From Blastocatellia bacterium (GTDB taxonomy: Bacteria; Acidobacteriota; Blastocatellia; RBC074), in the NCBI GenBank assembly GCA_043775925.1, contig JAYVRW010000281.1, forward strand, positions 1 to 56,673: DNA of 56,673 nt, read 5' to 3'. Below, piece by piece: positions 115-49,519 of this stretch. The notes under the pieces are model-generated. The model saw nothing but the letters and a program-made list of their open reading frames with translations. It had not been told where the DNA came from and searched no databases. Position 1 is the stretch's first letter. Every line of letters begins with the position of its first letter. A program made the translations under genes and the position numbers.

Positions 115-1254
115 ATGAATAAAAACTACCAAAAATTATTGATAATGGCGCTGGCGTTATGCGCTTCAGCCTGTGCGAATACGAATTTTAAAATTAATGC
201 TGAAGCGCCGCCGCTCTTTCACGGAACCGTCGAAACACATGAAATTAAAATCGGCTCCAAAGTCGGTGGACGTGTGACGGAAGTTTTAGTTGAAGAGGGA
301 CATAGCGTTGAGCTGAATCAACCTTTAGTACGCTTTGATGTCGCAGAATTGCATTCACAATTAAAGCAGGCGGAAGCACGTGTCACGCAGCATCGTGCTC
401 GTTTGAATCAATTGTTACGTGGCTTTCGCGTTGAAGAAATCGCGCAGGCTTCCGCCGTGACCGGAACCGCCAAAGCTTCATTTGAAGTGATGCGCAACGG
501 CGCACGTCCTGAAGATATTGCGCAGGTCAAAGCCAATGTTGCGGCTGTCGAAGCCGAAGTTGCGAGCGCCAAAATCAGCTACGAACGATTTAATCTTTTG
601 CATCAATCCGGCGATTTATCACGGCACGAAGTTGACAGCGCTAGGTATCGTTATGAAGCCATCGCAGCCCGCCGCGAAGCCGAAGCAAAAAAATTAGAGA
701 TGTTGATGAACGGCAATCGGCACGAAGAAATTCGCGGAGCCAGCGAACGTTTACGTCAGGCAGAGCAAGCCGAAAAAATGATGCGAGGCGGAGCGCGTCC
801 CGAAGAAATTGCCGATGCCCGCGCGCAGCTTGCCGAAGCACGGGCGAAAGTTGACCAATTCAAGGTTTTGATCGCTGAAGGAGAATTACACGCTCCGGCT
901 CGCGCCCGTGTCGAAGCAATTTCTATCAGACCCGGCGATGTTATTACGGCAGATCAAAGTGTCATGAAATTACTCGAAGCCGACCAGCTTTTTGTGCGGA
1001 TGTTCATCCCCGAACCCGACCTCGCCAAAATCAAAGTGGGGCAAAAAGTCAGTGTCACAATAGATGCGGCGGACGAACAGGTCATGGTTGGAGTTATTGA
1101 GCAAATTAATGAGCAGGGTGAATTCACGCCGCGCAATGTGCAAAGCCGTGACGAGCGCAATCATCAGGTTTTCGGCGTGAAAGTAAAGCTGAATAATTCC
1201 GCCGGGAAATTAAAATCAGGGATGGCGGCGAAGATTCATTTAGCTGGGAGTTGA
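115..1254 (+). CDS. HlyD-family membrane fusion (periplasmic adaptor) protein, probable lipoprotein
   Basis: Lipobox-like ALCASAC; lipoyl-like GSKVGGRVTEVLVEEG; long coiled coil; C-terminal EFTPRNVQSRDERNHQVFGVKV and LKSGM; directly upstream of ABC genes. Confidence 0.92.
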   Translation: MNKNYQKLLIMALALCASACANTNFKINAEAPPLFHGTVETHEIKIGSKVGGRVTEVLVEEGHSVELNQPLVRFDVAELHSQLKQAEARVTQHRARLNQLLRGFRVEEIAQASAVTGTAKASFEVMRNGARPEDIAQVKANVAAVEAEVASAKISYERFNLLHQSGDLSRHEVDSARYRYEAIAARREAEAKKLEMLMNGNRHEEIRGASERLRQAEQAEKMMRGGARPEEIADARAQLAEARAKVDQFKVLIAEGELHAPARARVEAISIRPGDVITADQSVMKLLEADQLFVRMFIPEPDLAKIKVGQKVSVTIDAADEQVMVGVIEQINEQGEFTPRNVQSRDERNHQVFGVKVKLNNSAGKLKSGMAAKIHLAGS

Positions 1255-1259
1255 GGGAG

Positions 1260-1349
1260 TTTTTAGACAGGATGAACAAGATTTGTAGGCAAGATTAACA
1301 AGAAAATTCCTGTCAATCTTGAAAAAATCCTGTTCATCCTGTCTAAAAA
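1260..1349. repeat. Intergenic palindromic element (REP-like)
   Basis: TTTTTAGACAGGATGAACAAGATTT ... AAATCCTGTTCATCCTGTCTAAAAA with one mismatch; nested inner arms CAAGATTAACAAG / CCTGTCAATCTTG. Confidence 0.85.
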
Positions 1350-1361
1350 ATATCGAAAATT

Positions 1362-2282
1362 ATGGCAACTGCAATTTCAATCAATGACCTGACGATCAAA
1401 TTCAAAAACTTCACCGCTGTCAACAGTGTCAGCTTGCAAGTGCAGCCCGGAGAGATTTTTGGCTTTCTGGGTCCGAACGGTTCCGGTAAAACGACGATTA
1501 TTAAAACGCTGTGTGGATTGCTGAAACCTACGTCTGGCGCAGCCGAAGTCTTCGGTTTGGATTGCCTCAAGCAAGCGGAAACGATTCGTCGGCAGGTTGG
1601 GTATATGTCACAGAATTTCAGCCTCTACGACGATTTGACGGTGCGCGAAAATCTTAATTTTTATGCGGGAATTTATGGGCTGCGCAATGGCGCTAAAAAA
1701 TCTCGCATTGCAGAAGTAATCGAAATGACGAAGCTGGAACCTTATCTTGAACGTCGTGCGGGAAAATTATCAGGTGGATGGAAGCAGCGGCTGGCTTTAT
1801 CATGCGCGATTATTCATAAGCCGAAACTTTTATTTTTGGACGAACCGACTGCCGGAATTGACCCCGTAGCGCGACGTGAACTGTGGGATGTTTTGTTTGA
1901 AATGTCAGGACGCGGAATTACTTTTTTCGTGACGACACATTACATGGATGAAGCCGAACGATGCAGCCGCGTCGGCTATATTTATTTGTCGAATTTGATT
2001 GCGTGCGGTACGCCGGAAGAGTTGAAAACATTGCCTGAAATTACTCCGAACGGAACGAAACGAATTGAAGTGAGTGTGGCAAACCCTGCCATTGCGCTTG
2101 CTGCTTTGAAGCATAAATCTTACGTGCGGCAAGCCACAATTTTCGGGCAATCCATCAACGCGTTGATTGATGAAAGGATCCCGATTGCGCAAATAAAAAA
2201 TGAAATTTCAGGCAGCGAGGTGCGAGAAGTCAGCGCTTCGCTGGAAGATGTTTTCGTGACGTTGACAATGCAGCATCAATGA
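1362..2282 (+). CDS. ABC transporter ATP-binding protein (ABC-2/DrrA type)
   Basis: Walker A GPNGSGKT, signature LSGG, Walker B LLFLDEP, H-loop TTH. Confidence 0.96.
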
Positions 2283-3668: not shown

Positions 3669-6600
3669 ATGAAAAAAGCTGGTTCAGGTTTCCGTTTCTT
3701 CCATTTCTTGTACGGAATTCAGGTGGTGCTATTTTTATTCATTAGCGTAGATTCCTTGCAGGCACAATCCAATCAAAATTTATCGCAAGCCTTGATTCAA
3801 GGCACTCCGATTGAGCAAGTCATTGCAAAAGGTGAAGTTCAATCTTACAACATCGCGCTTGCCGCAGGTCAATTTGTGCATGTGCGGGTCACGCAAAAAG
3901 GAACGGATGTTGCGTTGCGTTTGCTGCGTCCGAATAAAGAAGAAATCTGTTCTTTCAATTTACTCCAAGGGGCTCAGCGTCATGAACGAATGTTGGTGAT
4001 TGCCAAAGAAACAGGGATTCATGAATTGAAAATTGCAATCCCAACCGGAAGCGCGCCACCGGGGAATTATCGTGTCGAGATACTGGAATTAAAGACTGCT
4101 GATGAGAACGACGAACGCCGAACTCAGGCAGAACATCTGATCGAAGAGGCTTGGGAAAGTCAATTAATAGGAACCGGGGAGTCCATTAAACTCTGTCATG
4201 AAAAAGCAAATCGGGCACTTGCCCTTTTTCAGGCAGCCAAAGATCAGGAAGGTGAAGCCTTAGCTTTAGAAGTTCAAATCACTGAGGTAGATCACACGCC
4301 ACAGATAGAGCTTTCTAAACAAGCGCTGGCTATCCAGCGTCAATTAGGGGATAAGCCGGCCATTGGTTATTTGCTGAATTCCGTTGGTATGGCTTATGTG
4401 GTTACTGGTGATTGGCAAAATGGAATTGAGTATTTACAGCAATGCTTGGAAGTCGTCAGAGAACTAGATGATTGGCAGGTTGCAACCAATGTTTATGGGA
4501 ATCTGGCGGTGCTTTATGGTCGAACGGGGGACGCTGAAAAGTCGGTGAATTTTTCTAAGCAATCAATCGCTATAGCAGAAGCTCATCAAATGAAAAATAG
4601 GAATATCGGGGGGTATGCTAATTTGGGAATTGCTTATAAAGATTTGGGGGAATATCAGCTTTCTCTGGAATCTTACGAGAAATCACTCCAACTCATGAAA
4701 GAGTTGAATCAAATGGATGCTGCTGGAAGAGTCTATAGCAATCTCGGCAATCTTTATCGGATTCTGAACAACGTTGAGAAAGCCAGCGAGTATTACCAAT
4801 TAGCCTTAGCGCTTTCGAGGAAAAAAGGAATCGAGCTGGATGAAGCGCTCGCGCTCAATAATTTGGGGCTGACTTATTATCGAATGGGCGAATATCAAAA
4901 AGCTTTGGAGGCCTGTCGGCAAGCTCTGGTGATCAGAAAAAAGAATGGAGATTTACCGGGACAAGCTGCTGCGTATGAATTCATTGGAATGGCATTGAAC
5001 AAGCTGGGGCAGTACGAAAACAGTTTGGAAAACCTGACGAGTGCACTTGATCTGCGCCGCAAAATGAATGAGCGATACGGGATCGTTTTTAATCTTCAGC
5101 ATTTAACTGAACTGGAAATGGATCGCGGAAATTATCAGCAGGGATTGCCCTACATTGAAGAGGCAATCAATTTGACAGAGGCGAATCGCTCGACGATCAA
5201 CGCTCCTGACCTGCGACTTTCGTATGGTTCTAAAATTCAGGAAGAATATTCAGTTTATGTAGATTTATTGTTGCGACTTCACCAACAGGAACCAACGGCC
5301 GGATACGATCAGAAGGCTTTGCAGATGAGCGAGAAAGCACGGGCACGCAGTATGCTGGAATCGCTCATTGAAGGGAGGCTTGATCTTCGTAGCGGCGTTA
5401 AGCCGGAATTGTTAGAGCGCGAAAAAGTGATTCAGAAGAAGATCAACGACAGTTCCTCGCAACTCGCTCGACAAATTTCTGGCAAGCCGGATGAAGCAAA
5501 AATCAAGAAAACACAAAATGAATTAGACACTCTGACCAAAGAATATAAAGACATTCTCACGCAAATTCGCCTTGAGAGTCCGCGCTATGCCAGCCTGACA
5601 CAGCCCCAACCGTTGAGCGCAAAAGAAATTCAATCCGAGATCATGGACGATCAAACTGTCTTGCTGGAATATGCGCTGGGAGATCAACAAAGCTGGTTAT
5701 TTGCTGCTACCAAAAATGGCGTGCAGACTTTCAAATTACACGGTGAGCAAGAAATCAATAATGCCGCACGAAAATTTTATGAAGCCTTAACCGCACGAGA
5801 ATCCGCGACCGACCTCAAAGGAATTGATGACAAAATAAATTCGACCGGAGCCGCACTCAGTCAGTTGATTCTCTCTCCTGTCGCCAAACAATTGAACAAC
5901 GAATGGAAGGGAAAACGATTGGCGATTGTCGCTTCGGGAGCGTTGGAATATGTGCCGTTTTCGGCTTTGCCTGAAATGGTAGGCAGTGATCGGGGGGCTG
6001 TGGTCGGTAATGTAGCGAATAACCGTTCACCGACCACAGCCCCCCGACCACTAATTACAGATCACGAAATCGTGAACCTACCATCTGCTTCTGTTTTAGG
6101 CGTAATTCGGCAGGAAATTTCTGCGCGTAAATCGGCTCCAAAACAAGTAGCGGTTTTCGCCGATCCGGTCTTTGAAAAGAATGATCCGCGCTTTGCGCAA
6201 GCGAAAAATCAGACTCCGAGCGAAACGCCAAAAGCGGAAGTTGCCAGCAATACCAATACCGTTTTCAGCCGCGCAATGCGGGATTTTGACAGCAAGCGCG
6301 ATCAACTTGGACGGTTGACGTTTTCAAAACAGGAAGCCGAAGCCATCGCTTCGATGACGAGCAAAGAACAAAGCCTGCAACGTGTGAGCTTCGCCGCCAA
6401 TCGCGCCAATGCGATGAGTGAAGAACTCAGCCAATATCGAATTATCCATTTCGCTACGCACGGAATGCTCAACAGCGAACATCCCGAATTATCCGGCTTG
6501 GTTTTTTCTTTGGTGGACGAAAAGGGCAAACCGCAGGATGGGTTTTTGCGGCTGCACGATATTTATAATTTGAAATTACCTGCCGATTTGGTAGTCCTCA

Positions 6601-6884
6601 GCGCGTGTCAGACTGCGCTTGGCAAAGAAGTCAAAGGCGAAGGTTTGATTGGATTGACGCGCGGATTTATGTACGCCGGAGCGCCGCGTGTGGTAGCGAG
6701 TTTGTGGCGCGTGAATGATTACGCGACCGCCGAATTGATGAAACGATTTTACGCGGGAATGCTGAAAGAAAATTTAGCTCCGGCGGCGGCCTTACGTGCG
6801 GCGCAGCTTGGCATGCTGAAACAGAAACGATTTGGTAATCCGTATTATTGGGCGGCGTTCACGCTGCAAGGTGAATGGAAGTAG
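3669..6884 (+). CDS. Secreted TPR-repeat / CHAT-domain (caspase-like, clan CD) protease
   Basis: Hydrophobic signal ending LQAQ; PPC-like N-terminal beta domain; about 8 TPR repeats; CHAT catalytic motifs HFATHG and VLSACQT; C-terminus PYYWAAFTLQGEW. Confidence 0.93.
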   Translation: MKKAGSGFRFFHFLYGIQVVLFLFISVDSLQAQSNQNLSQALIQGTPIEQVIAKGEVQSYNIALAAGQFVHVRVTQKGTDVALRLLRPNKEEICSFNLLQGAQRHERMLVIAKETGIHELKIAIPTGSAPPGNYRVEILELKTADENDERRTQAEHLIEEAWESQLIGTGESIKLCHEKANRALALFQAAKDQEGEALALEVQITEVDHTPQIELSKQALAIQRQLGDKPAIGYLLNSVGMAYVVTGDWQNGIEYLQQCLEVVRELDDWQVATNVYGNLAVLYGRTGDAEKSVNFSKQSIAIAEAHQMKNRNIGGYANLGIAYKDLGEYQLSLESYEKSLQLMKELNQMDAAGRVYSNLGNLYRILNNVEKASEYYQLALALSRKKGIELDEALALNNLGLTYYRMGEYQKALEACRQALVIRKKNGDLPGQAAAYEFIGMALNKLGQYENSLENLTSALDLRRKMNERYGIVFNLQHLTELEMDRGNYQQGLPYIEEAINLTEANRSTINAPDLRLSYGSKIQEEYSVYVDLLLRLHQQEPTAGYDQKALQMSEKARARSMLESLIEGRLDLRSGVKPELLEREKVIQKKINDSSSQLARQISGKPDEAKIKKTQNELDTLTKEYKDILTQIRLESPRYASLTQPQPLSAKEIQSEIMDDQTVLLEYALGDQQSWLFAATKNGVQTFKLHGEQEINNAARKFYEALTARESATDLKGIDDKINSTGAALSQLILSPVAKQLNNEWKGKRLAIVASGALEYVPFSALPEMVGSDRGAVVGNVANNRSPTTAPRPLITDHEIVNLPSASVLGVIRQEISARKSAPKQVAVFADPVFEKNDPRFAQAKNQTPSETPKAEVASNTNTVFSRAMRDFDSKRDQLGRLTFSKQEAEAIASMTSKEQSLQRVSFAANRANAMSEELSQYRIIHFATHGMLNSEHPELSGLVFSLVDEKGKPQDGFLRLHDIYNLKLPADLVVLSACQTALGKEVKGEGLIGLTRGFMYAGAPRVVASLWRVNDYATAELMKRFYAGMLKENLAPAAALRAAQLGMLKQKRFGNPYYWAAFTLQGEWK
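5985..6052. repeat. Intragenic palindromic element, in frame within the CHAT domain
   Basis: AGTGATCGGGGGGCTGTGGTCGGT (5985-6008) pairs with ACCGACCACAGCCCCCCGACCACT (6029-6052) at 23/24 positions; 20-nt loop; translates as SDRGAVVGNVANNRSPTTAPRPL. Confidence 0.88.
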
Positions 6885-7101: not shown

Positions 7102-9132
7102 ATGTCCCAAACAAAATTACGATCAGGCAAATTCATCGCCCTGGTAATTGTCGCCCTGTTGATCATTTGGAAAACAGGGAACCTGACAATTTCAACTGCG
7201 CAGGTACTACCGACCGTGAAATTTTATGACACGGTTCCGCTCGTGATTCCGATTGATACAACTGCGCCGATCCTGTTACGTGCTCAGGCTAATGGCGCTA
7301 CTCGCGTCAGTTTTGAATACAATCCGAACAATTTGGCGACGGGGCAGGAAATCCCCATGCTCGACGATGGTACAGGCGGAGATCAGGTTGCCGGGGACGG
7401 AATCTATACCGTGACCTTGACACCTGCACAGGCGGCACAAGGCTTACAAACCAGTGATGTTTTCAGGAAATTTATCGGATTTATCAAACCGTTTCAGGGA
7501 ACGACGCAGGGAAGTCGAATTAATACGTTTACGAATGTGATTACCTCAGACATTCCGCGTGGGACGATCAACCGTGCGGCCCCTGATGTGCAATTCACTG
7601 ATAATCTGGTGAATATTGTTGATCCAACGTATGAGGCGAATCGGGATTATAGAAAAGTAGCGCGGAAATTTTTCCAGTATTTCAAAGATGAATACGATTT
7701 TTTGAACATCGTCTCAGCACAAAACACTATCGAAAACCGCTTTCATTTCGGAGTTCAGAATAGTGTTCGTGGAATTGGAATTCCACTATTTGACACGAGC
7801 CTCGATTATGGAAGTGGTGGACAGTTACTGGGAATTTCGGTCTTTCCATCGTCAACAATTTACGACGGAGCCGAAGCTGGGTATCAACATGAAACGGGTC
7901 ATCAATGGGTTGAATTTCTTGATTTGCCAGCCATTAAAACGGGTAGACCACATTGGCCATATTCCAGTTTGGCCAGTGGAATTATGGGATTCTCAATTCC
8001 GGGGTCTGGCGCAGGTGGAGAATTTGCCTGCACTTTAACCCCTGAAGCTGGAGGTGTTCGCCTGACGCCGCGTGTCGGGCCACCAGTCTTTACCGATCTT
8101 GATTTGTACTTGATGGGATTATTGCCACCAGAGCAAGTCGGCGAGCATCTTATTTTTGCCGATCAATCACAAGCTCCAAGTTGTAATGGACAACTTTATA
8201 CGGCAGCTATGATCAAGGTGAACATCGGGGATGTTATTGCGCAGCAAGGGGCGCGTTTTCCTGTGGCAACTACGAGTGGCAAAAATTTTCGGATCGCTAC
8301 GGTGATCGTGTCAGAGAAATCGTTGTTGGATGAAAACGCGATGAATTATTTCAGCTATTTCACGAAGCGAGCTGAAGTTACGACGGATACTTTTGTACAC
8401 AATGGGTTCACGAAAAGAACTGAAAAACCATTTTTCGTTTCGACGGGAGGAAGAGCTACACTGACCACGAAGGTGTCACCCATTTTCGCACCAACTCCGA
8501 CTCCCACTCCAACGCCTGTACCAACGCCGACACCGATCCCCGTGCCAACTCCGAATCCGACACCAACACCTGTAGCAACCCCAACGCCGAACCCCACACC
8601 AGTGCCTACTCCAACACCAACTCCCACTCCCACGCAGGCGTGTGATTTGACGATTTGTTTTAGTGAACCGGATCGCTGGTGCAATCGGCTTGCGTCTTCC
8701 AGCAATTTCCGCAATTGGCAGGTCGTCGTGCCGGGAGTGAATGGCGGTAATCCGGTTCTTGTTTATGACTTTCCAAATGTTGTCAATCCGAATGTGAAGT
8801 ACGCACTTGGATGCGGCGGTGGGAATACTTCCGCGTGGGGAGAATTGACCGAAGCCTACGTCGGAGCGCAACTCGACATTCAAAGCGTCATTCCGTATTG
8901 GTGGTCAAAAATCAATACACAGCGCATCAGTTGCCATCTGGCTCCGACGGGAATGATGAGCGTCTCACCGTTGCCATTAACGTTAAGTAGTGGCGTGACG
9001 CTGACCAAAGATTCTTCGGTTGGAGATTTATTCAACGCCACGAATTGGGTGTTGCGCAGTGGTATGGCGGAAGATCAGACGAAGCTGCTGAAGGTCTTTA
9101 GAAGTTTGAATAACTGTACAAAAAAAGATTAA
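7102..9132 (+). CDS. Secreted putative zinc metalloprotease: choice-of-anchor-X-like domain, HExxH domain, PT linker, Cys-bounded C-terminal domain
   Basis: Signal/anchor [13 protein letters not shown]; [20 protein letters not shown]; HETGH then HWPY; PT linker; C-terminal domain from [10 protein letters not shown]. Confidence 0.75.
8491..8634 (+). repeat. Pro-Thr low-complexity linker (48 codons)
   Basis: [24 protein letters not shown]...; codons synonymously varied, so not a perfect DNA tandem repeat. Confidence 0.95.
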
Positions 9133-9135
9133 CCA

Positions 9136-9199
9136 GCGTTAAGAGTTCACGCTTCAGCGTGCTAAAAAACACCCACGCTGAAGCGTGAACTCTTAACGC
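9136..9199. repeat. Intergenic palindromic element, possible terminator
   Basis: Perfect 26-bp arms GCGTTAAGAGTTCACGCTTCAGCGTG / CACGCTGAAGCGTGAACTCTTAACGC, 12-nt loop, just after the stop codon. Confidence 0.92.
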
Positions 9200-21065: not shown

Positions 21066-21307
21066 GATGGTCGTTGAAAATTAAATTCGGCAATGCTCCA
21101 TCGGAGCAGTTGAATTTAGGCAGGTCGTTGACGGCCTGTAGCGGAAAGGTGAAACCGTTACCGCGTCCCATCGGGACGCTTGATGCTCAGTCGTCCCGAT
21201 GGGACGAATTGCCATTGCCTCCCACAGCAGGCCGTGAACGACCTGCCTACATTCAGCCAGCCCTCCGGGCTGATGTTCGTTGCCGGATTTAATTTTCAAA
21301 GACCATT
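21066..21307. repeat. Nested multi-arm palindromic element (REPIN/MITE-like), about 240 bp
   Basis: Outer TTGAAAATTAAATTCGGCAA / TTGCCGGATTTAATTTTCAA (19/20); middle TGAATTTAGGCAGGTCGTTGACGGCCTG / CAGGCCGTGAACGACCTGCCTACATTCA; core CGTCCCATCGGGACG / CGTCCCGATGGGACG. Confidence 0.88.
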
Positions 21308-22265: not shown

Positions 22266-22358
22266 AGTTTATCTCTTTAAATTTAGCAGGGGCGAAAACC
22301 GAATTTGCAACTGCGTGGGATACTACAATAGACGCTGATAAATTGTCCAGTTTTCACA

Positions 22359-22449
22359 AGGCAGAAGCCCGCGTGTCAACAAGGGCGTTTTTTCTTCGGA
22401 AGTTATTTACGGTGTACTGCTGCCCTCCTTAACAGTCGGGCTTCTGCCT
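22359..22449. repeat. Palindromic element family A, copy 2
   Basis: Right arm GCCCTCCTTAACAGTCGGGCTTCTGCC identical to copy 1; left arm variant GGCAGAAGCCCGCGTGTCAACAAGGGC. Confidence 0.9.
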
Positions 22450-22470
22450 TTTTTCGGCTATACTCGAAGT

Positions 22471-23232
22471 ATGAAAGTTATCGCTATCATTCCAGCTCGT
22501 TATGCCTCATCCCGCTTGCCCGGAAAACCTCTACTGGAAATCGGCGGCAAAGCGATGATCCTGCGCGTCGTCGAATGCGCTACCTCCGTGAAATCCATCA
22601 ACAAAGTCATCGTGGCGACTGACGACCAAAGAATTTTTGAGGCCGTCAATCAAGCGGGTTACGAAGCTGTGATGACCAGAGCGGATCATCAAACCGGAAC
22701 GGATCGTTTAGCCGAAGTCGCTGAAAAACTGGACGCGGAAATTATTGTGAATGTGCAGGGCGATGAACCGTTCATCGAAGCCGCTACGATAGAAGCTGCG
22801 CTGCAACCATTGTTGTTGGATGAAAAAATATTGATGGCGACAACGTGTGAGCCAATTGATTCCGTCGCCGATGTCATTAATCCCAACGTCGTCAAAGTCG
22901 TCCGCGACCAGAAAAATTTCGCGCTCTATTTTTCCAGGCATCCAATCCCATTTTTGCGCGCAGCCGTGCAGCAATACGGCTCCATTGAAAATGCGTTGCG
23001 CACGCAGCCAGAATTACTAAAAGCATTTTTTAAGCATACAGGGCTGTATGTGTATCGCCGCGAATTTTTATTGCAGTATGCGAAATTGCCGCTCACTTTT
23101 TTAGAACAGGCAGAGGCGTTGGAACAATTGCGAGCGTTGGAAAATGGCTTTCGGATTAAGGTGGTAGAAGTGGCGCATCGTTCGATTGGGATTGATACGC
23201 CGGAAGATTTAGAAGCAGTTCGCAGCCTGTAG
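22471..23232 (+). CDS. kdsB: 3-deoxy-manno-octulosonate cytidylyltransferase (CMP-Kdo synthetase)
   Basis: IIPARYASSRLPGKPL, TGTDR, VNVQGDEP, ALYFSR, LEQAEALEQLRALENG. Confidence 0.97.
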   Translation: MKVIAIIPARYASSRLPGKPLLEIGGKAMILRVVECATSVKSINKVIVATDDQRIFEAVNQAGYEAVMTRADHQTGTDRLAEVAEKLDAEIIVNVQGDEPFIEAATIEAALQPLLLDEKILMATTCEPIDSVADVINPNVVKVVRDQKNFALYFSRHPIPFLRAAVQQYGSIENALRTQPELLKAFFKHTGLYVYRREFLLQYAKLPLTFLEQAEALEQLRALENGFRIKVVEVAHRSIGIDTPEDLEAVRSL

Positions 23233-23302
23233 TTCGCGGTTCGCAGTGAAGGAAGTTCTCAGGCTTCTTACTGCGAACTTCTTCTCTGCGAACCGCGAAC
23301 TA
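23230..23302. repeat. Palindromic element between convergent genes, likely bidirectional terminator
   Basis: TAGTTCGCGGTTCGCAG / CTGCGAACCGCGAACTA, perfect 17-bp arms. Confidence 0.88.
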
Positions 23303-23305
23303 TTC

Positions 23306-24634
23306 CTACAATTCCGCCAGTCGTTTATCCGAATCGCCGAAGCGATCCAGTTGCACGCCCATCTTATCCATCAAAGAAAGATACAAACTACAGGCACGGC
23401 GGTTGTCGTTGCCTTTGTCGAGGTAATCAAGGACACGCCCTGTTTGTAAGGCTCCACCCGCTTTTCCGGCGAGGAGGATGGGGAGTTGATCGGCTCCGTG
23501 CGCGTTGCCGTCGTAAAGGTTCGACGCCAGCATCAGCATGGAATTATCAAGTAGCGAAGCGCCGCCTTCGTCAATCGCTTTCAGGCGTTGCGCGAGGTAG
23601 ACAAATTGCTGCATGTGAAACTGATTGGTCTTGAGGTACATCGCTTCCAGCTCCGGCGCTTTGCCGTTGTGTGTGAGGTCAAGGTGCAAGGCTCCGCGCA
23701 CGCCATCAATAAATTTGAAATTCATTTGCGAAAGATCGTTGTTGAGCATCAGCGTGACGATGCGCGTTTTGTCCATTTGGAACGCGAGGACTACGAGGTC
23801 AAGCATGAGCTTCATGTGATCGGGAACGTTCTGCGGAATCTGGTCGGCAGGACGCGGCAGGTTGGGTTGTTTGAGCGTTGGACGCCAACCTTCAAGGCGT
23901 TCTTCTTTCGCGGCGTGATCAATGCGTTTTTCAATGTCGCGGATGGATTCTAAATATTCGTCAAGTTTTTTGCGGTCGCCGGAACTGACTTTTGGTTGGA
24001 GCGATTTCGCATCGGAAAGCACGATGTCGAGAATGCTGCGATCAAGCTTGCGGCCTGTGCCGTCGCCGACCAATTGGTCAAAAGTGCGCGACGGATAAAT
24101 TTCTTTTGTGGCAGGTCTGGTCGGAGAAGTCCACGAAACGCACGAACCATACAGCATCGAAAGCCCGTCTTCGAGGCGCAATTCGTTCGGTTCAACTCCG
24201 AGTACCAGACTTGGCACAGCGGTCTGATTTCCGATGCGCTGCGCGAGAATCTGGTCAAACGAAGTCCCGACGCGAATGTCGTTCGGGTCAGAACTGACGA
24301 GCGCTCCCGACAATAAATTCATTCGCCCCAGATGCGGGCTGGTCGAAGTGAAAGCTTTCTGATGGTACAACCCTTTCAGAAAAATTAAATCTTCACGGAT
24401 CGCCGTTAAGGGCTGCGCGGAGGGTCCAAATTCCATGACCGCGCCGCTACCCTTCGCCCACCAGTTGGCAGGTTTGATGCCGTTCGACCAATAGACATGC
24501 GCAAAACGGATCGGAGGTTTATTCGCTTTGTTGTCCTGTGCAAAGAGCGGCAAAGATTCCAGCCAGGGAAGCGTAAGCGCTACACCTGCGCCGCGCAGAA
24601 AATTACGTCGAGATTTTTGGTTGGTGATTTTCAT
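23306..24634 (-). CDS. DUF1552-family protein with Tat signal
   Basis: [21 protein letters not shown]; SFDQILA..IG..T..PSLVLG; [15 protein letters not shown]; SLLDNSM; LPILLAG. Confidence 0.88.
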
Positions 24635-24659: not shown

Positions 24660-24740
24660 TTCAACGCAAAGGATCAAAGGAACAAGGTGACAAGGGATAG
24701 TAGCAGAAATTCTTTGCCCCCTTTGACTCTTTGCGTTGAA
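24660..24740. repeat. Palindromic element family B, copy 1
   Basis: TCAACGCAAAGGATCAAAGG ... CCTTTGACTCTTTGCGTTGA; related to 48342-48427. Confidence 0.82.
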
Positions 24741-24761: not shown

Positions 24762-27700
24762 CTATCGCAGTGCAATCTTTGTTTTTGCTGGTAATTCTGG
24801 TGGATTTTCTTCTCTTCCTAAACGATTTCTGAATTGCTTACTGGTTACAATCTCTGAAACCAGTTGCGAAAATGTAGCTTCGCCGCCAGCTTTCACCATC
24901 CGCTCAATCAACAATTGATCTGATGCCTGGACGGTGCGTCCGAGCGCGTAGCCGACCAGTTTATACGAAAGGGTTTTACGAATTTGTGGTTCTTTAGATT
25001 TTAAATATTTGACTAATCCGTCAATGCCAGCGATCTCGGTTTTGTCGGGGAGCGCGGCAGAATCTTCGATTTGTTTTCCGTCGGAATAGGTATCGCGCCA
25101 GCGTCCCATGGAATCATATTTTTCTAATGAAAAGCCCAGCGGATCAATTCTTGTATGGCAATTCGCGCACGACGCATTGCGTTTGTGTTGCTCCAGTTTT
25201 GCTTTCAATGACAGCCCGCCAAACATTTTTTCATCCGCCGGAAGCGAGCCAGCATCCGCTGGCGGAGGCGGCGTTGGCGTTCCCAGAATTCGTCGCAAAA
25301 TCCAGTCTCCGCGTTTGACGGGACTGGTGCGCAAGGGTGCGGAAGTGGTTGTCAGGACGGCACCGAGTCGCAACAATCCGCCGCGATGAAAGGCGTTGGC
25401 TCCATCAACGTATTCGGGTTGATCGGTGGCATTGATTTCTTTTTTGACACCGTAAAATTTCGCCAAATCTTTGTTCAGAAAAGTGTAGTCGGCGAACAGG
25501 ATTTCACTTACCGGACGATCTTTGCGAATCACATGCTCAAAGAACGAAACGGCTTCGTCGTACATCGCTTCTTTCACGTCATCGGTGAATTCTTTAAAGC
25601 GACCTGAATCTACGCCGGTGTATTTATCGAAATGATAGAAGCCCAGCCACTGCCCGAAAAATTCGGTTGAGAGCCGTCGAGCTTTCGGATCGGCTAACAT
25701 GCGTTTGACTTGCCGTTGGATGCCTTCATCGCTCGTCAGTTCACGCGCATTCGCGGCACGTCGCAATTCATTATCGGGAATCGAAGACCAGAGAAAATAA
25801 CTCAGCCGACTCGCCATTTCATGATTCGTCAGCGGTTTGACATCAGGCGCGAAAGAGACTGTCTTTATTGGTGATTCGTTCGCTGCCTGCTCGACGCGAT
25901 ACAGAAATTGTGGAGCGATGAGGATGCGCATCAACAACGCCCGAATTGCTTTGCTGTGATCGGGATCGGCGTTCAGCACTTTGTCGTAAAATGCCCGCAG
26001 GCTCAGCTTTTCTTTTTCACTCAACGGACGACGCCACGCACGGCTGGCGAATTCAAGACAATCGTTGATGTGTCCCGGACGTGCTGCGACCTGTGCCGCA
26101 TTTACTGTGTCATATTCGCGCCGCAACGGGGTCACATACTTTTGCATCTCAGCGGGCAAGGCTGCGATTTGCGCTTTATTCATGTCGGCAATGCCTTTGC
26201 CTTTCAGGTCAAAAGAATAATGCCTGGCAAGCAGGCGCAGATAACTGTCGTGATATTCAAACGAAGCGTAAAGATCGTTCCAGGCGTGATTCAGCTTAAC
26301 TTTTGTAGCTGGGTCAATGAGGTTGTCTACGACAAATTTATCATCGCGGATATATTTTACCTTCACTACGAATTCGTCGTGTTCAGGAACGTTGTAGGTG
26401 TTATCGAATGGCTCCGGCACGGGGTCTTTATCCGCTGGCGTTGGTTCGCCGTGTGTGTTTGGAGGCAGTATTGATGCGTATTCCGTGATACCTGCTCGGA
26501 AATTCTGGTAGCCTGCGCTTTTCATGTCTCCGATGAGCGCACGGGTTGGTTGTCCTCTGGTTTGCCCGTCAGCGCGGTCAGAAATTACGATGCGGACAAC
26601 CTGATCCCGATTGGCGCCGATTTCTGCGTCAATGTACATATTCAGGAGGGTCGGTTTTTCCGGCATCGGAACCTCAAACATGACGGAACCTTCTGAGGCG
26701 AAATCGTCAGGGCCAAGCGGCGTACCGTCAGGGCTTTTACCAAAATTTAAGCGCTGCGCCGTTTCTGGGCTGACAATATCTTTTAATTTTTTACGTTCGC
26801 CTGGAGGCAGAATTCCACGTCGTAAATTCGCCGCAGCTTCTACGTCTTGCGCGAGTACGACGACGGATTCTCCGGCGGCGACAGTGCCGCGAGGAACGAT
26901 AGGACGATACCCAACCGTGACGTTGCGCCAAATAACGACGGGCTTATCGCCCATTGCTGGATTCACGGTGGAGACATTCAAATAGATTTTTGCCGGCCCT
27001 GATTGAATTGGTCCACGTCCCGCGCCGCGCACGTAGGCGAACCGATGCGGGACTTTTACATTGAGCGTTCGATCACTGAATTCGAGCGGACTTTCGTCGC
27101 CTGCGCCACCGGCGGCGACATCTCCACGGGCGAACAACCAGCTTGGCCACGTCACCATGAATTTTTGAATTTCATCACAGCCAGCGCGAGCAAGAGCCGT
27201 ATTTTTGTTGTCAGGCGGCGGCAACTTGCACCAGCGTGCAGCAATTTCTGACGACGGATATTTCAGCGCAGGATTGTTGACGACTTGCCAGATATGTTGC
27301 GCAAAGCGAAGCGAAATTCCTTCCCGTTCGGCTAGTTTTTTCAAAGTAGTGTTGGGTTCACCAAGCGCGGTGCGGTTTTTGAATTGCCACGCAACAAATA
27401 ACGCTTTGCCGTATTTATCCAATCCGAATGGTTTTCCACCTTCGCCTGAAACGGTACGGATTCCATTCGCGGCATAAATATCTTTGATGCGCGTCACGGC
27501 GGCGAGTTCAAATCCGGTTTTGCCGGGATGCGTGAAAAAATCGAGCGGGCCGGAACCGATGACAGCATGGTCGGCGACAGTTTTTGCGGCTCCGAGATAG
27601 CGTTCAAGATTCGCATCCTGCATGAATTGCACGTCGCCAAAATTAGTGAAACCTTCGCCGCCGACAGAATCACTCGAAGAGTCAATCCCGACTTCCAAAT

Positions 27701-28184
27701 CAACTCCGGTCAGGTCTTTGATGGTGTAAGCGTATTCGCCACTGGTTAATCTCCTCACGGTAACTTTGCCCGGATCGCCATCGTGTTTTTCGGCGTAGGC
27801 GCTAAGCTCTCCGCGAATCCAGGCGATGGCCTGCGCTCGTTCAGCGTCGCTGGGCTGCGGCATGGATTTTGGCGGCATCGTTTTTTGTTCAAGTGCGGTA
27901 GCGATTTTTTCCCACTGTTTGAAGCTTTCACCCACTGAGGGGGCCGCCATTAGTTTTTCGAGATTGACACCGGCTTTCGCGGCAGTTCCGCTGTGGCATT
28001 GCAGGCAATATTGCGTAAATATTGCTTGTGCGGTGGTGGGCGCCTGCCTGGCCCCATGCGTCGTTCTGACCACGCTGATAGCGAAGATCAAGGTGAGCAG
28101 GATTAAGACTGCTTTCCAGGGACGCGATTTATTTCCCGTCAACTGACGAAGAGTAAAAATTTCTTTGTTATTCTCGAACCTCAT
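24762..28184 (-). CDS. Planctomycete-type cytochrome c + DUF1587/1595/1592/1588/1585 (PSD) protein
   Basis: CLQCH heme motif near N-terminus; VRRLTSGEY; [16 protein letters not shown]; [17 protein letters not shown]; [17 protein letters not shown]; start set at 28184 (SD GAGGA) rather than track start 28295. Confidence 0.88.
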
Positions 28185-28468
28185 GGTGACCAATCCTCGC
28201 AATAAAATACTATTCGGAAGCCTCTGGCTCCTGATTAAATGCATTTTATACCAATTTGAAGTTGACTCTGAATCTTTGCCTTTAGAAGTGATCAAAGCTC
28301 ACTTAATTTATACGATGGGTTAAGATTTTTGAATCAATCAACGAATAGAGATTTTGCGCTTGGAATTAGTTTGAGTCAACTACTAACTCAGCTTAGCTGG
28401 AAGGAAATTCATTACTCACAAGAAAATCCAATGAACAATGAGATCCGTCCGGCCTTGGGAACGTGAAA

Positions 28469-32448: not shown

Positions 32449-32687
32449 AAATTTAGCCGCGAATTAACGCGAATTATAGGGGTTTTTAAGTGGATGCGAC
32501 TGTCAAGCGCCTGCGGTACAGTACGGCGAGCGGTAGCGAGTTGGTCGGCAGTGGAGGGAACCAGCTCGCTACCGCTCACCGTACTGTACCAGCCGCACTC
32601 ATCCGCAAACTGCTATAATAAAACAAGAAAAATGGTTTCTTGTTTTAGAAAAATTCGTGCTAATTCGTGAAATTCGCGGCTAAATTT
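32449..32687. repeat. Nested palindromes: outer GCCGCGAATT-type element enclosing a 31-bp-arm element
   Basis: Outer AAATTTAGCCGCGAATT / AATTCGCGGCTAAATTT; inner 32515-32590 GGTACAGTACGGCGAGCGGTAGCGAGTTGGT / ACCAGCTCGCTACCGCTCACCGTACTGTACC (29/31). Confidence 0.88.
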
Positions 32688-33518: not shown

Positions 33519-33616
33519 GACTGGAGCGCAAGCGTCCCCGCTTGCCAGTGAATTATTGGATTTTTTATTAACGTAATCTTCTGCGAGTCTGGCGAGCGGA
33601 CGCTTGCGCTCCAGTC
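33519..33616. repeat. Palindromic element (GGAGCGCA family) abutting the LysR stop codon
   Basis: GACTGGAGCGCAAGCGTCC / GGACGCTTGCGCTCCAGTC, perfect 19-bp arms. Confidence 0.88.
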
Positions 33617-34519: not shown

Positions 34520-34654
34520 AAATCAAAAGGCAAATATCAAAAATTAAAAAGCAAAAGTGAGACAATGTCACTTTCGCGTCATAACCTTTTTCATTGTTTG
34601 GTTGAGGTCGGCTTTACTTTTACCATTTGATATTTGCCTTTTGCCTTTTGATTT
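34520..34654. repeat. Palindromic element with heptamer-periodic arms
   Basis: AAATCAAAAGGCAAATATCAAA vs TTTGATA-TTTGCCT-TTTGCCT-TTTGATT. Confidence 0.75.
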
Positions 34655-42807: not shown

Positions 42808-42865
42808 AGATGCTAGATGTTGAATGCTGGGCAAAGCCTAATCCAGCACCCAACATCTAGCATCT
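42808..42865. repeat. Palindromic element family C, copy 2
   Basis: AGATGCTAGATGTTG / CAACATCTAGCATCT, perfect 15-bp arms, inner TGCTGG/CCAGCA. Confidence 0.85.
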
Positions 42866-45638: not shown

Positions 45639-46655
45639 ATGGCAGAAATCGCTAACGCCCACGATAAATCTTTCAAAGAAATCTTCGGACAGCCGGAAAT
45701 CGCCGCCGACTTCATGGTAAATTATTTGCCTGCTCCCGTCGTGGCGGAGTTGGATTTGTCGGCCCCCGAATTAGTGAAGGATTCGTTCGTAGGCGCTAAT
45801 TTGCAGGAACATTTTTCGGACTTACTCTACAAAGTGAAGCTGCGAGGTGCGAACGCAGAGGCGTTTATCTTTTTCCTTTTCGAGCATAAGAGTGTGCCGG
45901 ACGAATGGGTAGCGTTGCAGCTTCTGCGCTATTTGCTGGAAATTTGGGAACAGTGCAAGCGTGAAGGCGCAAAGAAATTGCCGCCAATTTTCCCGATTAT
46001 ATTTTATCACGGCACGAAGAAGTGGAGTTTTCCGGCGAACTTCCATGCGCTGATAAATTTTAGTGGACAGGAGTATTTGCAGCCCTTTGTACCAGAATAC
46101 AAATATTTTCTTTGTGATTTAACCCAAATCGAAGAGCCTGCAATCATTGGTACTGAGTATTTGAGAGCCACGTTGTTGCTGATGAAGAACATTCGTCAGG
46201 CAGATTTGAAGAACCGACTTGATTACATTTGGGGAATGCTCAAAAATGCTTCTCAGGTTAAGATAGCTGATTATATCGTGACTTGTTTTCGATATATTTC
46301 TTCGTCAAATAATTGCCTGACAGCCGATGAGTTGACAGGTGTTATTAGCAGAGATTTTTCCGCCAGTGAAGGAGCAGTTATGGCACAACTAGCAAAAGAT
46401 TGGATTCAGCAAGGACTTGAGCAGGGGCGTAATCTTGGTATTCAAGAAGGACTTCAAGAAGGGCGACGAGAAGAAGCAGGACGGACTGCCCTCAGATTTA
46501 TTGCGCGACGCATAGGAATTATTCCTGCTACGCAGCAGGACTTTATTCGTGATTTGCCGTTGGAGCAATTAGAAACACTTTTAGATGATATTTTAGATTT
46601 CACTTCCGCCTCGGACCTCAACAATTGGTTGGCAATTCACACAACACAAAAATAA
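45639..46655 (+). CDS. Rpn/YhgA-like recombination-promoting nuclease (PD-(D/E)xK) with DUF4351-like C-terminus
   Basis: HDKSFKEIF, SDLLYKV, FLFEHKS, PIIFYHG, GLEQGRNLGIQEGLQEGRREE. Confidence 0.92.
   Translation: MAEIANAHDKSFKEIFGQPEIAADFMVNYLPAPVVAELDLSAPELVKDSFVGANLQEHFSDLLYKVKLRGANAEAFIFFLFEHKSVPDEWVALQLLRYLLEIWEQCKREGAKKLPPIFPIIFYHGTKKWSFPANFHALINFSGQEYLQPFVPEYKYFLCDLTQIEEPAIIGTEYLRATLLLMKNIRQADLKNRLDYIWGMLKNASQVKIADYIVTCFRYISSSNNCLTADELTGVISRDFSASEGAVMAQLAKDWIQQGLEQGRNLGIQEGLQEGRREEAGRTALRFIARRIGIIPATQQDFIRDLPLEQLETLLDDILDFTSASDLNNWLAIHTTQK
46380..46655 (+). CDS. Putative in-frame small C-terminal protein of Rpn (RpnS-like antitoxin, 91 aa)
   Basis: AAGGAG (46369-46374), 5-nt spacer, in-frame ATG 46380 (MAQLAKDWIQQG...). 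Confidence 0.6.
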   Translation: MAQLAKDWIQQGLEQGRNLGIQEGLQEGRREEAGRTALRFIARRIGIIPATQQDFIRDLPLEQLETLLDDILDFTSASDLNNWLAIHTTQK

Positions 46656-48341: not shown

Positions 48342-48427
48342 TAACGCAAAGGGACAAAGGGTCAAGGGAACAAAGACTTCATTAACGAACGTTCTTTGTT
48401 CCTTTGACCCTTTGTCTCTTTGCGTTA
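48342..48427. repeat. Palindromic element family B, copy 2
   Basis: TAACGCAAAGGGACAAAGGGTCAAGGGAACAAAG / CTTTGTTCCTTTGACCCTTTGTCTCTTTGCGTTA. Confidence 0.88.
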
Positions 48428-48455: not shown

Positions 48456-49397
48456 ATGAAAAAAATTGTCCGTCTCTTTATTTTACTAACGCTGAGTTTC
48501 ATCACGCTTCACGCGCAACCCAAACGTCAAATTGCCATCACCTTCGATGATCTGATTTTCGTGCCTGATAATGATCTTGTTCAGATGAAAGCCCTGACCA
48601 CCAAATTGCTGACGACGCTCAAGAAAAATAAGGTTCCGGCGATTGGCTTTGTCAACGAACGAAAGCTATATAAACCCGGCGAAGAAGCAGCCCGCACCAC
48701 CATTCTGAAAATATGGATTGATGCCGGATTCGAACTCGGTAATCACACGTATTCGCATCTGGACATGTTCAAAGCCTCCTCCGAAGAATTCCAGAAAGAT
48801 TTGCTCGACGGCGAAGTCGTTACCAAAAAATTATTAGCACCCAAACCCGAACGCTACTTTCGTCATCCGTTTCTAAACACCGGAGCGACTCCCGCACACA
48901 AAGCCACCTTCGATAAAATCATCGCGGATCATCACTACACTGTCGCGCCCGTCACCGTAGACAATGGCGATTATATTTTTGCTAGTGTGTATTCCGACGC
49001 ACTGAAAAAGAATGATCGGGCGATGATGAAGCGAATATCGGATGCCTATATTCCTTACATGAATTCCGTGCTGGATTTTTATGAAAAACAATCGAAGACG
49101 CTGCTCGGCTATGAGATGAAGCAAATCCTGCTGGTACACGCGAACACGATCAATGCGATTCATTTTGGCGACATTATCAAAATGATGAAACAGCGCGGAT
49201 ATGAATTTATTTCGCTCGAAGAAGCGTTGAGGGATAAAGCGTACCAGTTGACCGATTCATATACCGGACGCAGTGGAACTTCGTGGATTCAACGCTGGGC
49301 AATGACACAAAAACATCAGCCGACAATCAATCAATTTAAGGAAGAGCCGAACGTGCCTGAGTTCATTCAAAAAGCCTACGACGCCCGCAAGCCATAA
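48456..49397 (+). CDS. Secreted polysaccharide deacetylase (CE4/NodB fold)
   Basis: Signal ending LHAQ; IAITFDD, ELGNHTYSH, YFRHPFL, ILLVHAN. Confidence 0.92.
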   Translation: MKKIVRLFILLTLSFITLHAQPKRQIAITFDDLIFVPDNDLVQMKALTTKLLTTLKKNKVPAIGFVNERKLYKPGEEAARTTILKIWIDAGFELGNHTYSHLDMFKASSEEFQKDLLDGEVVTKKLLAPKPERYFRHPFLNTGATPAHKATFDKIIADHHYTVAPVTVDNGDYIFASVYSDALKKNDRAMMKRISDAYIPYMNSVLDFYEKQSKTLLGYEMKQILLVHANTINAIHFGDIIKMMKQRGYEFISLEEALRDKAYQLTDSYTGRSGTSWIQRWAMTQKHQPTINQFKEEPNVPEFIQKAYDARKP

Positions 49398-49486
49398 GGC
49401 AGAAGCCCGACTGTTAAGGAGGGCAACTGTGCCAGGGAAATAGCTTTCTTAGTACGGTAGCCCTTCTTAACAGTCGGGCTTCTGCC
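49398..49486. repeat. Palindromic element family A, copy 3
   Basis: Left arm identical to copy 1; right arm has 1 mismatch; interior shares AAATAGCTTTC with copy 1. Confidence 0.92.
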
Positions 49487-49519
49487 TTCCCATGTGATAG
49501 TCTTCCCGCAGATACCACG

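Follow-up and report, generated by a model that had tools for sequence, protein, structure and literature searches.

A palindrome within the coding sequence of a Blastocatellia TPR-CHAT protease, at a loop that carries different repeat-derived DNA in homologues

How does a nearly perfect DNA palindrome come to lie inside the reading frame of a constrained protein? This question is raised by a 68-nucleotide (nt) inverted repeat at positions 5985-6052 of contig JAYVRW010000281.1 of Blastocatellia bacterium (GCA_043775925.1), which falls within the CHAT domain of a TPR-CHAT protease gene; the full stretch of 56,673 nt is hereafter called the window. A preliminary description of this DNA proposed that the repeats of the lineage colonise a permissive CHAT loop and create new peptide sequence there, possibly tuning the protease. 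We found that the same loop carries different repeat-derived DNA in other CHAT homologues, and we favour, with slightly better than even confidence, the explanation that the window hairpin is a young copy of a REP-like repeat of about 7-nt units (REPs are discussed below) that came from the intergenic stock of the lineage and is tolerated in a disordered CHAT loop without a specific function.

A hairpin within the coding sequence of a TPR-CHAT protease

The features of the host gene and of the hairpin are as follows.

3669-6884, + strand: TPR-CHAT host gene, 1071 aa, with an N-terminal region, a TPR array and a C-terminal CHAT caspase-like protease domain
5970-6050, + strand: hypervariable loop of the CHAT domain, codons 768-794, PEMVGSDRGAVVGNVANNRSPTTAPRP, between invariant L767 and L795 (boundaries from a 53-gene alignment)
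5985-6008, + strand: left arm of the hairpin, AGTGATCGGGGGGCTGTGGTCGGT, 24 nt, encoding SDRGAVVG
6009-6028, + strand: loop of the hairpin, AATGTAGCGAATAACCGTTC, 20 nt, encoding NVANNR and the first two bases of an S codon
6029-6052, + strand: right arm of the hairpin, ACCGACCACAGCCCCCCGACCACT, 24 nt, encoding PTTAPRP and the first two bases of the L795 codon
6447-6464, + strand: catalytic His motif HFATHG, residues 927-932, intact, the H invariant in homologue alignments
6597-6614, + strand: catalytic Cys motif LSACQT, residues 977-982, intact, the C invariant in homologue alignments

The hairpin sits between LEYVPFSALPE and LITDHEIVNLPSAS of the open reading frame (ORF), and its coordinates and pairing are as first described, with 24-nt arms complementary at 23 of 24 positions, that is with one mismatch, around a 20-nt loop. 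As RNA, the inverted repeat forms a single long stem and reaches -53.9 kcal/mol compared to -24.4 +/- 3.2 in 200 dinucleotide shuffles (z = -9.4), none of which was equally stable, and the 90-nt segment containing the hairpin ranks first of 205 within the host gene (z = -8.65). With no such hairpin in shuffled windows either, the palindrome greatly exceeds what chance would be expected to produce; the preliminary description had called it unexpected from protein constraint.

Some library or assembly artefacts, such as a chimeric foldback, also yield palindromes. Here, however, an independent Logan assembly (SRR23617271) contains the same 1071-aa protein and identical DNA across the hairpin, which is seen in two samples, and an assembly artefact was ruled out on this ground. 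The ORF is also intact and the same phenomenon occurs in many unrelated assemblies, so that an artefact of sequencing or assembly is extremely improbable.

The host protein has the features of a CHAT protease. Residues 726-1069 match the Pfam CHAT domain (PF12770) with E = 9e-71 and 239 bits, the cutoff being 24, many TPR families match ahead of this domain, the His/Cys dyad is present, and the fold is caspase/separase-like. The AlphaFold2 model of residues 640-1071, obtained from a 57-sequence alignment, has a predicted local distance difference test score (pLDDT) of 89.4 and a predicted template modelling score of 0.90, and with Foldseek it matches the Csx29/TPR-CHAT protein of Craspase (E = 1e-15), separase (1e-11) and DdvA. 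The closest relative, P0002, is a 78% identical protein from locus L001 (NCBI metagenome-assembled genome (MAG) GCA_043783625.1), and because both genes lie downstream of the same HlyD, ABC ATPase and ABC-2 permease genes, P0002 is a positional orthologue. The ratio of nonsynonymous to synonymous divergence (dN/dS) between the two genes is about 0.10 (dS of about 1.2) and, for the CHAT part by itself, 0.09, a low value indicating that the host gene is functional and constrained. The hairpin is presumably translated, judging from the intact and selected ORF.

The palindrome had been described as keeping the frame and as supplying with its right arm the PL of PLI. The ORF is indeed intact, but 68 nt is not divisible by 3, and the frame is kept by the whole 81-nt variable stretch 5970-6050 and not by the palindrome alone. 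The P794 codon lies inside the right arm, which also takes in the first two bases of the codon of invariant L795. The arms had further been likened in their heptamer style to the intergenic elements of the window. Within the arms this periodicity is weak (identity 13/30 at lag 7 and 12/23 at lag 14), and Tandem Repeats Finder detected no tandem array at the CHAT hairpin of the window; the GTGGTC(G/A) unit of the window arm does recur in clear heptamer hairpins of the homologous loci L001, L072, L081 and L122.

The hypervariable loop and its repeats in CHAT homologues

The loop (model residues 129-155) is one of three low-confidence stretches in the AlphaFold2 model, a coil with pLDDT of about 50-60 that falls below 50 at residues 137-147, and it is accordingly predicted to be a disordered surface loop. 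Within the CHAT domain it belongs to the N-terminal half, which is non-catalytic, and about 135 residues separate it from the catalytic His downstream. The window and L001 share only 4 of 26 loop residues, compared to 56 of 60 in the flanks, and the 81 nt (window) and 87 nt (L001) between the flanks cannot be aligned, though the flanks align. At the same codons, L001 has its own unrelated and weaker hairpin (GGTTTTGAGT.../...ACTCAAAACC), and no other hairpin of the P0002 gene scores higher. The orthologue, therefore, does not conserve the peptide without the palindromy; it has another peptide and a different palindrome of its own.

The length of the L767-L795 segment varies widely among 120 database homologues: it is close to zero at one extreme and above 80 residues at the other, and the sequences are unrelated. 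We analysed the DNA of 58 genes, drawn from 80 metagenomic loci and five database homologues, and found loop lengths of 6 to 89 aa; together with the predicted disorder, this bears out the description of the loop as permissive. The loops of at least 22 aa (18 genes) rank first or second within their gene for 7/8/14-nt periodicity in 14 of the 18 genes, and for hairpin stability (no G-U pairs) in 8 of the 18, with z scores for hairpin stability of -7.5 in L121 and -7.1 in the cyanobacterial L124 (Hassallia) next to that of the window, while short loops have neither signal. Furthermore, the best hairpin of the whole gene (ungapped score) falls inside the loop in 5 of 22 genes with a loop of at least 16 aa versus 0 of 31 genes with a shorter one, a split with a chance of about 1e-3 according to a rough binomial estimate.

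Long loops are arrays of about 7-nt units, and in about half the cases the two halves of the array are complementary. The loop units are:

L122: TTGGTCA/TGACCAA
L072, L081 and L057: TGGTCAG/CTGACAA
L125: GGAGTCA and CATCACG
L076 and L046: AATCCGC

Hairpins are found in the loop DNA of homologues including L001, L072, L081, L121, L122 and L124, so that the expectation that other CHAT homologues would carry different repeat-derived inserts at this site was borne out. In the loop hairpins of L072 (3130-3225) and L081 (5037-5132), we also observed an AGACAAC unit where the perfect TGACAAC would give an in-frame TGA, a mismatch that looks like stop avoidance shaping the repeat inside the ORF.

A stem that is this stable and nearly perfect might be a functional RNA or DNA structure, serving as a processing site for RNase III or another enzyme, as a translational pause between the CHAT subdomains, or as a brake on the expression of a potentially dangerous protease. 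The stem of 22-24 bp is of RNase III length and could slow ribosomes or attract RNase III. We consider such a role very unlikely, because about half of the long loops (L125, L046, L076 and L063) have no hairpin, most homologues are short-looped, and near-identical alleles exist with and without the hairpin. The orthologous hairpins of L072 and L081 have decayed in the related L057, which argues against selection for the hairpin structure. Furthermore, we found no intrinsic terminator, terminator-like tail or promoter at the CHAT hairpin, and a search of Rfam returned no family at the gathering threshold, the generic hairpin matches to eukaryotic microRNA precursors being noise far below it.

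The extreme diversity of the loop in length and sequence across two phyla may instead be read as adaptive diversification of the protein, for example of a sensor, a decoy or an interaction surface, or as phase variation in which 7-nt slippage would switch the protease domain. In line with the latter, the loops of L125, L046 and L076 hold four to five perfect heptamers, the unit size of known phase-variable genes. Both anchors of the loop are present in 74 loci, however, and all 74 are in frame and stop-free across it; phase variation was rejected, as none of these loci has a frame-shifted or stop-containing loop. In addition, the window insert is a palindrome and not a perfect tandem array, and the loop sequences resemble translated genomic repeats more than selected peptides. 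The insert is disordered, unconstrained in sequence and located in the non-catalytic half of the domain, which argues against diversification and leaves the proposed tuning of the protease unsupported. We give very little credence to either form of this explanation, and a regulatory or adaptive role of the hairpin has no support.

It has also to be considered whether the recurrent colonisation of the loop is exploited in at least two phyla, represented by Acidobacteriota-like MAGs and heterocystous cyanobacteria. Under this hypothesis, the loop that joins LxYxPFxAL to the xLPSAS strand in TPR-CHAT proteases would be a conserved 'landing pad', and the repeats would serve either to vary a functional surface of these proteases, which are of a death or defence type, or to throttle their expression via mRNA structure. 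We regard this hypothesis as a whole as quite unlikely.

Intergenic relatives, allelic forms and the origin of the hairpin

We found that the CHAT-loop hairpin of L121 copies a hairpin located in intergenic DNA of its own contig (L121:1176-1250), with the arms and the loop sequence in common. This indicates that import, or conversion from a dispersed copy, happens at the CHAT-loop site. The family extends, more distantly, to the intergenic hairpin at 32515-32590 of the window, and GGTAGCG is carried within the arms of the L121 hairpins and of this window hairpin. In L124 (Hassallia), GCAGGGGAGG and GAGACGCTACGCGA of the CHAT loop are also present in intergenic repeats of the same contig. The claim that repeats of the lineage colonise the loop thus holds for L121; for the window arm, no second copy was found in the 56.7-kb window at up to 3 mismatches.

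The L121 protein (P0053) and P0059 are about 99% identical except for one TPR unit and the loop hairpin of 42 aa (126 nt), which is missing in P0059. A direct repeat (GCGGTA) flanks the 126-nt indel, whose boundary the right arm crosses (junctions from the L121 allele alone), and the sequence suggests that the shorter allele is probably the product of a microhomology deletion. Either way, an entire hairpin of the CHAT loop is gained or lost between alleles that are otherwise nearly identical. The TPR difference between P0053 and P0059 is exactly one 40-residue unit (about 456-495 of P0053), a gain or loss of a unit of the TPR array. More CHAT genes or fragments adjoin the CHAT homologues at L125 1-713 and L121 7223-7525, the family being multi-copy and sometimes clustered. 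An SDRG peptide in the loops of P0053 and P0014 was considered as a sign of homology and dropped, as this peptide turns up often when all loci are translated in six frames.

The sole candidate relative of the window arm is an intergenic nested hairpin of L001, between the genes for a PilZ protein and a type II secretion system (T2SS) ATPase. The outer arms of this hairpin are made of GTGGTC(G/A) units; one of them has 19/24 identity to the window arm, and an alignment is obtained for both. The match gains credibility from the hairpin arrangement and the common unit, which suggest that the two hairpins may be related.

Next to these relatives stands the hairpin load of the window itself. A census across the whole window (ungapped score of at least 14) found 16 hairpins, 15 of them in the intergenic 18% and one, the CHAT hairpin, in the coding 82%, whereas shuffles gave 0. 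The intergenic hairpins occupy nearly every spacer of about 10 kb of non-coding DNA, mostly just past stop codons; they are long and near-perfect, several have arms of 7-8-nt tandem units, and some fall into families. Hairpins in the spacers of the window, including three copies of one family, GGCAGAAGCCCGACTGTTAAGGAGGGC, are located at:

1260-1349: intergenic hairpin
2287-2375: intergenic hairpin, family GGCAGAAGCCCGACTGTTAAGGAGGGC
9136-9199: intergenic hairpin
21111-21255: intergenic hairpin
22358-22450: intergenic hairpin, family GGCAGAAGCCCGACTGTTAAGGAGGGC
23230-23302: intergenic hairpin
24660-24740: intergenic hairpin
32515-32590 (no strand assigned): intergenic hairpin with CGGTAGCG..GT.GG arms, the distant member of the L121 loop-hairpin family
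33519-33616: intergenic hairpin
34524-34643: intergenic hairpin
42808-42865: intergenic hairpin
48342-48427: intergenic hairpin
49396-49488: intergenic hairpin, family GGCAGAAGCCCGACTGTTAAGGAGGGC

Spacers that are syntenic between the window and the 80%-identical L001 contain hairpins in both, with unrelated sequence, as is also the case for the CHAT loop. The spacers compared are:

Window 1228-1368 and 2265-2394
L001 7468-7561 and 8458-8720, the latter with one hairpin (CACGAAG units) nested in another

Unrelated hairpins at syntenic spacers indicate that the hairpins turn over much faster than the neighbouring genes.

While these results are consistent with import, a hairpin may also originate in place. 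By slippage of about 7 nt and intramolecular template switching (quasi-palindrome conversion), native loop sequence would be copied inverted, with nothing imported. A number of results weigh against import, and several of them are those that an origin in place would predict. The arm is single-copy within the DNA searched. Besides the missing second copy in the window, the CHAT loop of the window shares no run of common 10-mers with the rest of the window, and nothing beyond chance. In about 185,000 representative genomes, the source genome not among them, the exact 18-nt core of the arm gave 38 matches and 0 hairpins, the three acidobacterial matches lying in one conserved coding context. The 19/24 match to L001, taken as a single arm, has an estimated chance expectation of about 5% over the DNA searched. 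No direct repeat flanks 5985-6052, and neither a target-site duplication nor a terminal signature could be seen at the element, whose length, as said, is not a multiple of three. No RAYT or IS200-type transposase was found among the 31 window ORFs scanned with Pfam. Finally, the outer end of the right arm consists of the R-P-L codons typical of the family, the invariant Leu included, as expected were part of the arm native sequence copied inverted: the arm ends in P-R-P-L, including part of L795, like the native loop ends xYRP-L and TTDYRP-L of many homologues. The near-perfect arms fit a recent templated event, and in L121 too the right arm continues beyond the indel boundary into sequence that the shorter allele has kept.

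Against an origin in place stand the L121 hairpin, which copies an intergenic element with its loop sequence included, the resemblance of the window arm to an intergenic hairpin arm of the sister genome, and the abundance and nesting of hairpins genome-wide, which suggest a dispersing process. Because of the L121 case, the sister-genome relative and the nested hairpins, we lean towards import and regard an origin in place as less likely. For the window hairpin, both import rather than origin in place and neutrality are what we infer. The hairpin appears to be young, because its single mismatch in 24 pairs compares with a dS of about 1.2 between the window and L001. The insert appears to be tolerated, because it forms a coil with pLDDT of 50-60 in a model of pLDDT 89 and the gene retains its His and Cys motifs and has a dN/dS of 0.1.

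Under the hypothesis of import and tolerance, REP-like hairpin repeats of about 7-nt units would spread through the genome, which carries them in almost every intergenic spacer, and one of them would have landed in the loop, the one spot in the gene that tolerates such DNA. The gene would have stayed intact because the 81-nt loop is a multiple of three and stop-free, and the repeat would be translated as an unstructured insert of about 22-27 residues without a specific function. The loop would behave as an intergenic-like spacer within a gene, disordered, sequence-unconstrained and length-tolerant, in which repeats may arrive, decay by point mutation and vanish by microhomology deletion; as a result of this arrival, decay and loss, each lineage would have a different insert.

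Other genes of the window were noted as well. The only transposase-like gene of the window is a YhgA/Transposase_31 (PD-(D/E)XK, Rpn-like) and DUF4351 ORF at 45639-46655 (+), inserted in a branched-chain amino-acid biosynthesis cluster (leuA, leuB, ilvB, ilvN, ilvC, ilvD). Downstream of the CHAT gene, a 676-aa ORF at 7102-9132 (+) has no Pfam match and contains a Pro/Thr-rich linker, especially at 8489-8630, encoded by 54-nt and 6-nt tandem repeats; a 315-nt piece alone is conserved in L001, which places a synteny break there. At 23306-24634 and 24762-28295 (-), a DUF1552 (HXXSHH) gene adjoins a DUF1592/1588/1587/1585/1595 cytochrome-c-containing gene; such a 'PSD/PSCyt' pair, of the DUF1552 / DUF1592 type, characterises genomes of the Planctomycetes and Acidobacteria type.

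Relation to known repeats and significance

Rickettsia palindromic elements (RPEs) have a length of about 100-150 bp. In the account given by PMC3733652 (citing Ogata et al. 2000), they are palindromic repeats found in frame in coding genes and translated as an extra peptide, and they carry a CGTC tag. The window palindrome is similar in being in frame, at a tolerant site, inside an ORF that is functional (dN/dS of about 0.1, catalytic motifs present). In contrast, RPEs are longer and form recognisable multi-copy families in many unrelated genes, while the window element is 68 nt long, belongs to an unrelated organism, has no CGTC tag at either end of 5985-6052, and has no second copy in the window.

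GTAG/CGTC-tagged REPs are short stem-loops that in most cases follow directly after a gene and now and then fall within an ORF (Di Nocera et al. 2013, PMC3733652). In two Xanthomonas species, different REPs occupy roughly one and the same position of recB, and hairpins nested within palindromes have been reported as well (PMC3733652); the recB case is a direct precedent for recurrence at one site. That case concerns two congeners, whereas recurrence at the CHAT loop spans dozens of distant homologues and two phyla. Classical REPs are also 20-40 bp long, extragenic, high-copy and RAYT-linked, unlike the window element, which is intragenic, 68 nt long, single-copy in the window and without a RAYT among the window ORFs. 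A GTAG is present at 5979-5982, in weak pairing with TTAC; it is set off from the main stem by 2 nt and does not form the end of the arm.

Cyanobacterial STRR sequences are heptamer tandem repeats. TAACTGA heptamer repeats, mostly intergenic, have been described in Beggiatoaceae, Cyanobacteria and Bacteroidetes (MacGregor 2015, PMC4679880), with a few in frame in variable surface loops, such as that of an RpoC-like protein (PMC4679880). The long CHAT loops of homologues are likewise built of about 7-nt units (TTGGTCA, CTGACAA, AATCCGC, GGAGTCA), whereas the window element is chiefly an inverted repeat with weak 7/14-nt periodicity, from an acidobacterial and not a cyanobacterial or gammaproteobacterial lineage. 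In-frame MITE insertions add coding sequence, for example in Coxiella burnetii, in the accounts of PMC5896051 and of the reviews PMC2229807 and PMC10969869. The window element, as a small non-autonomous repeat, adds coding sequence as well. However, of the terminal inverted repeats, target-site duplications and cognate transposase that characterise MITEs none was seen here, and the window arms make up nearly the whole element, unlike the terminal inverted repeats of MITEs. The window element works like RPEs, REPs and MITEs and is not a member of these families, whose defining tags it lacks.

The phenomenon itself is known from RPEs and intragenic REPs, and the finding reveals by itself no new biological system; new are the Acidobacteriota host, the TPR-CHAT gene family and the extent of the recurrence at the same site. 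For annotation and protein engineering, it identifies a position of the CHAT domain that accepts inserts of at least 80 residues. To our knowledge, the mechanism by which REP-like hairpins move is not known outside of RAYT-associated REPs, and in this loop, sites that are filled, decayed or deleted form a natural series in which their origin, movement and loss can be studied. The finding means that the intergenic hairpin repeats of these soil and freshwater bacteria, which are little studied, can also end up as protein sequence, and that the widespread TPR-CHAT proteases have, in one loop of defined structure, a recurrent sink for repeat DNA.

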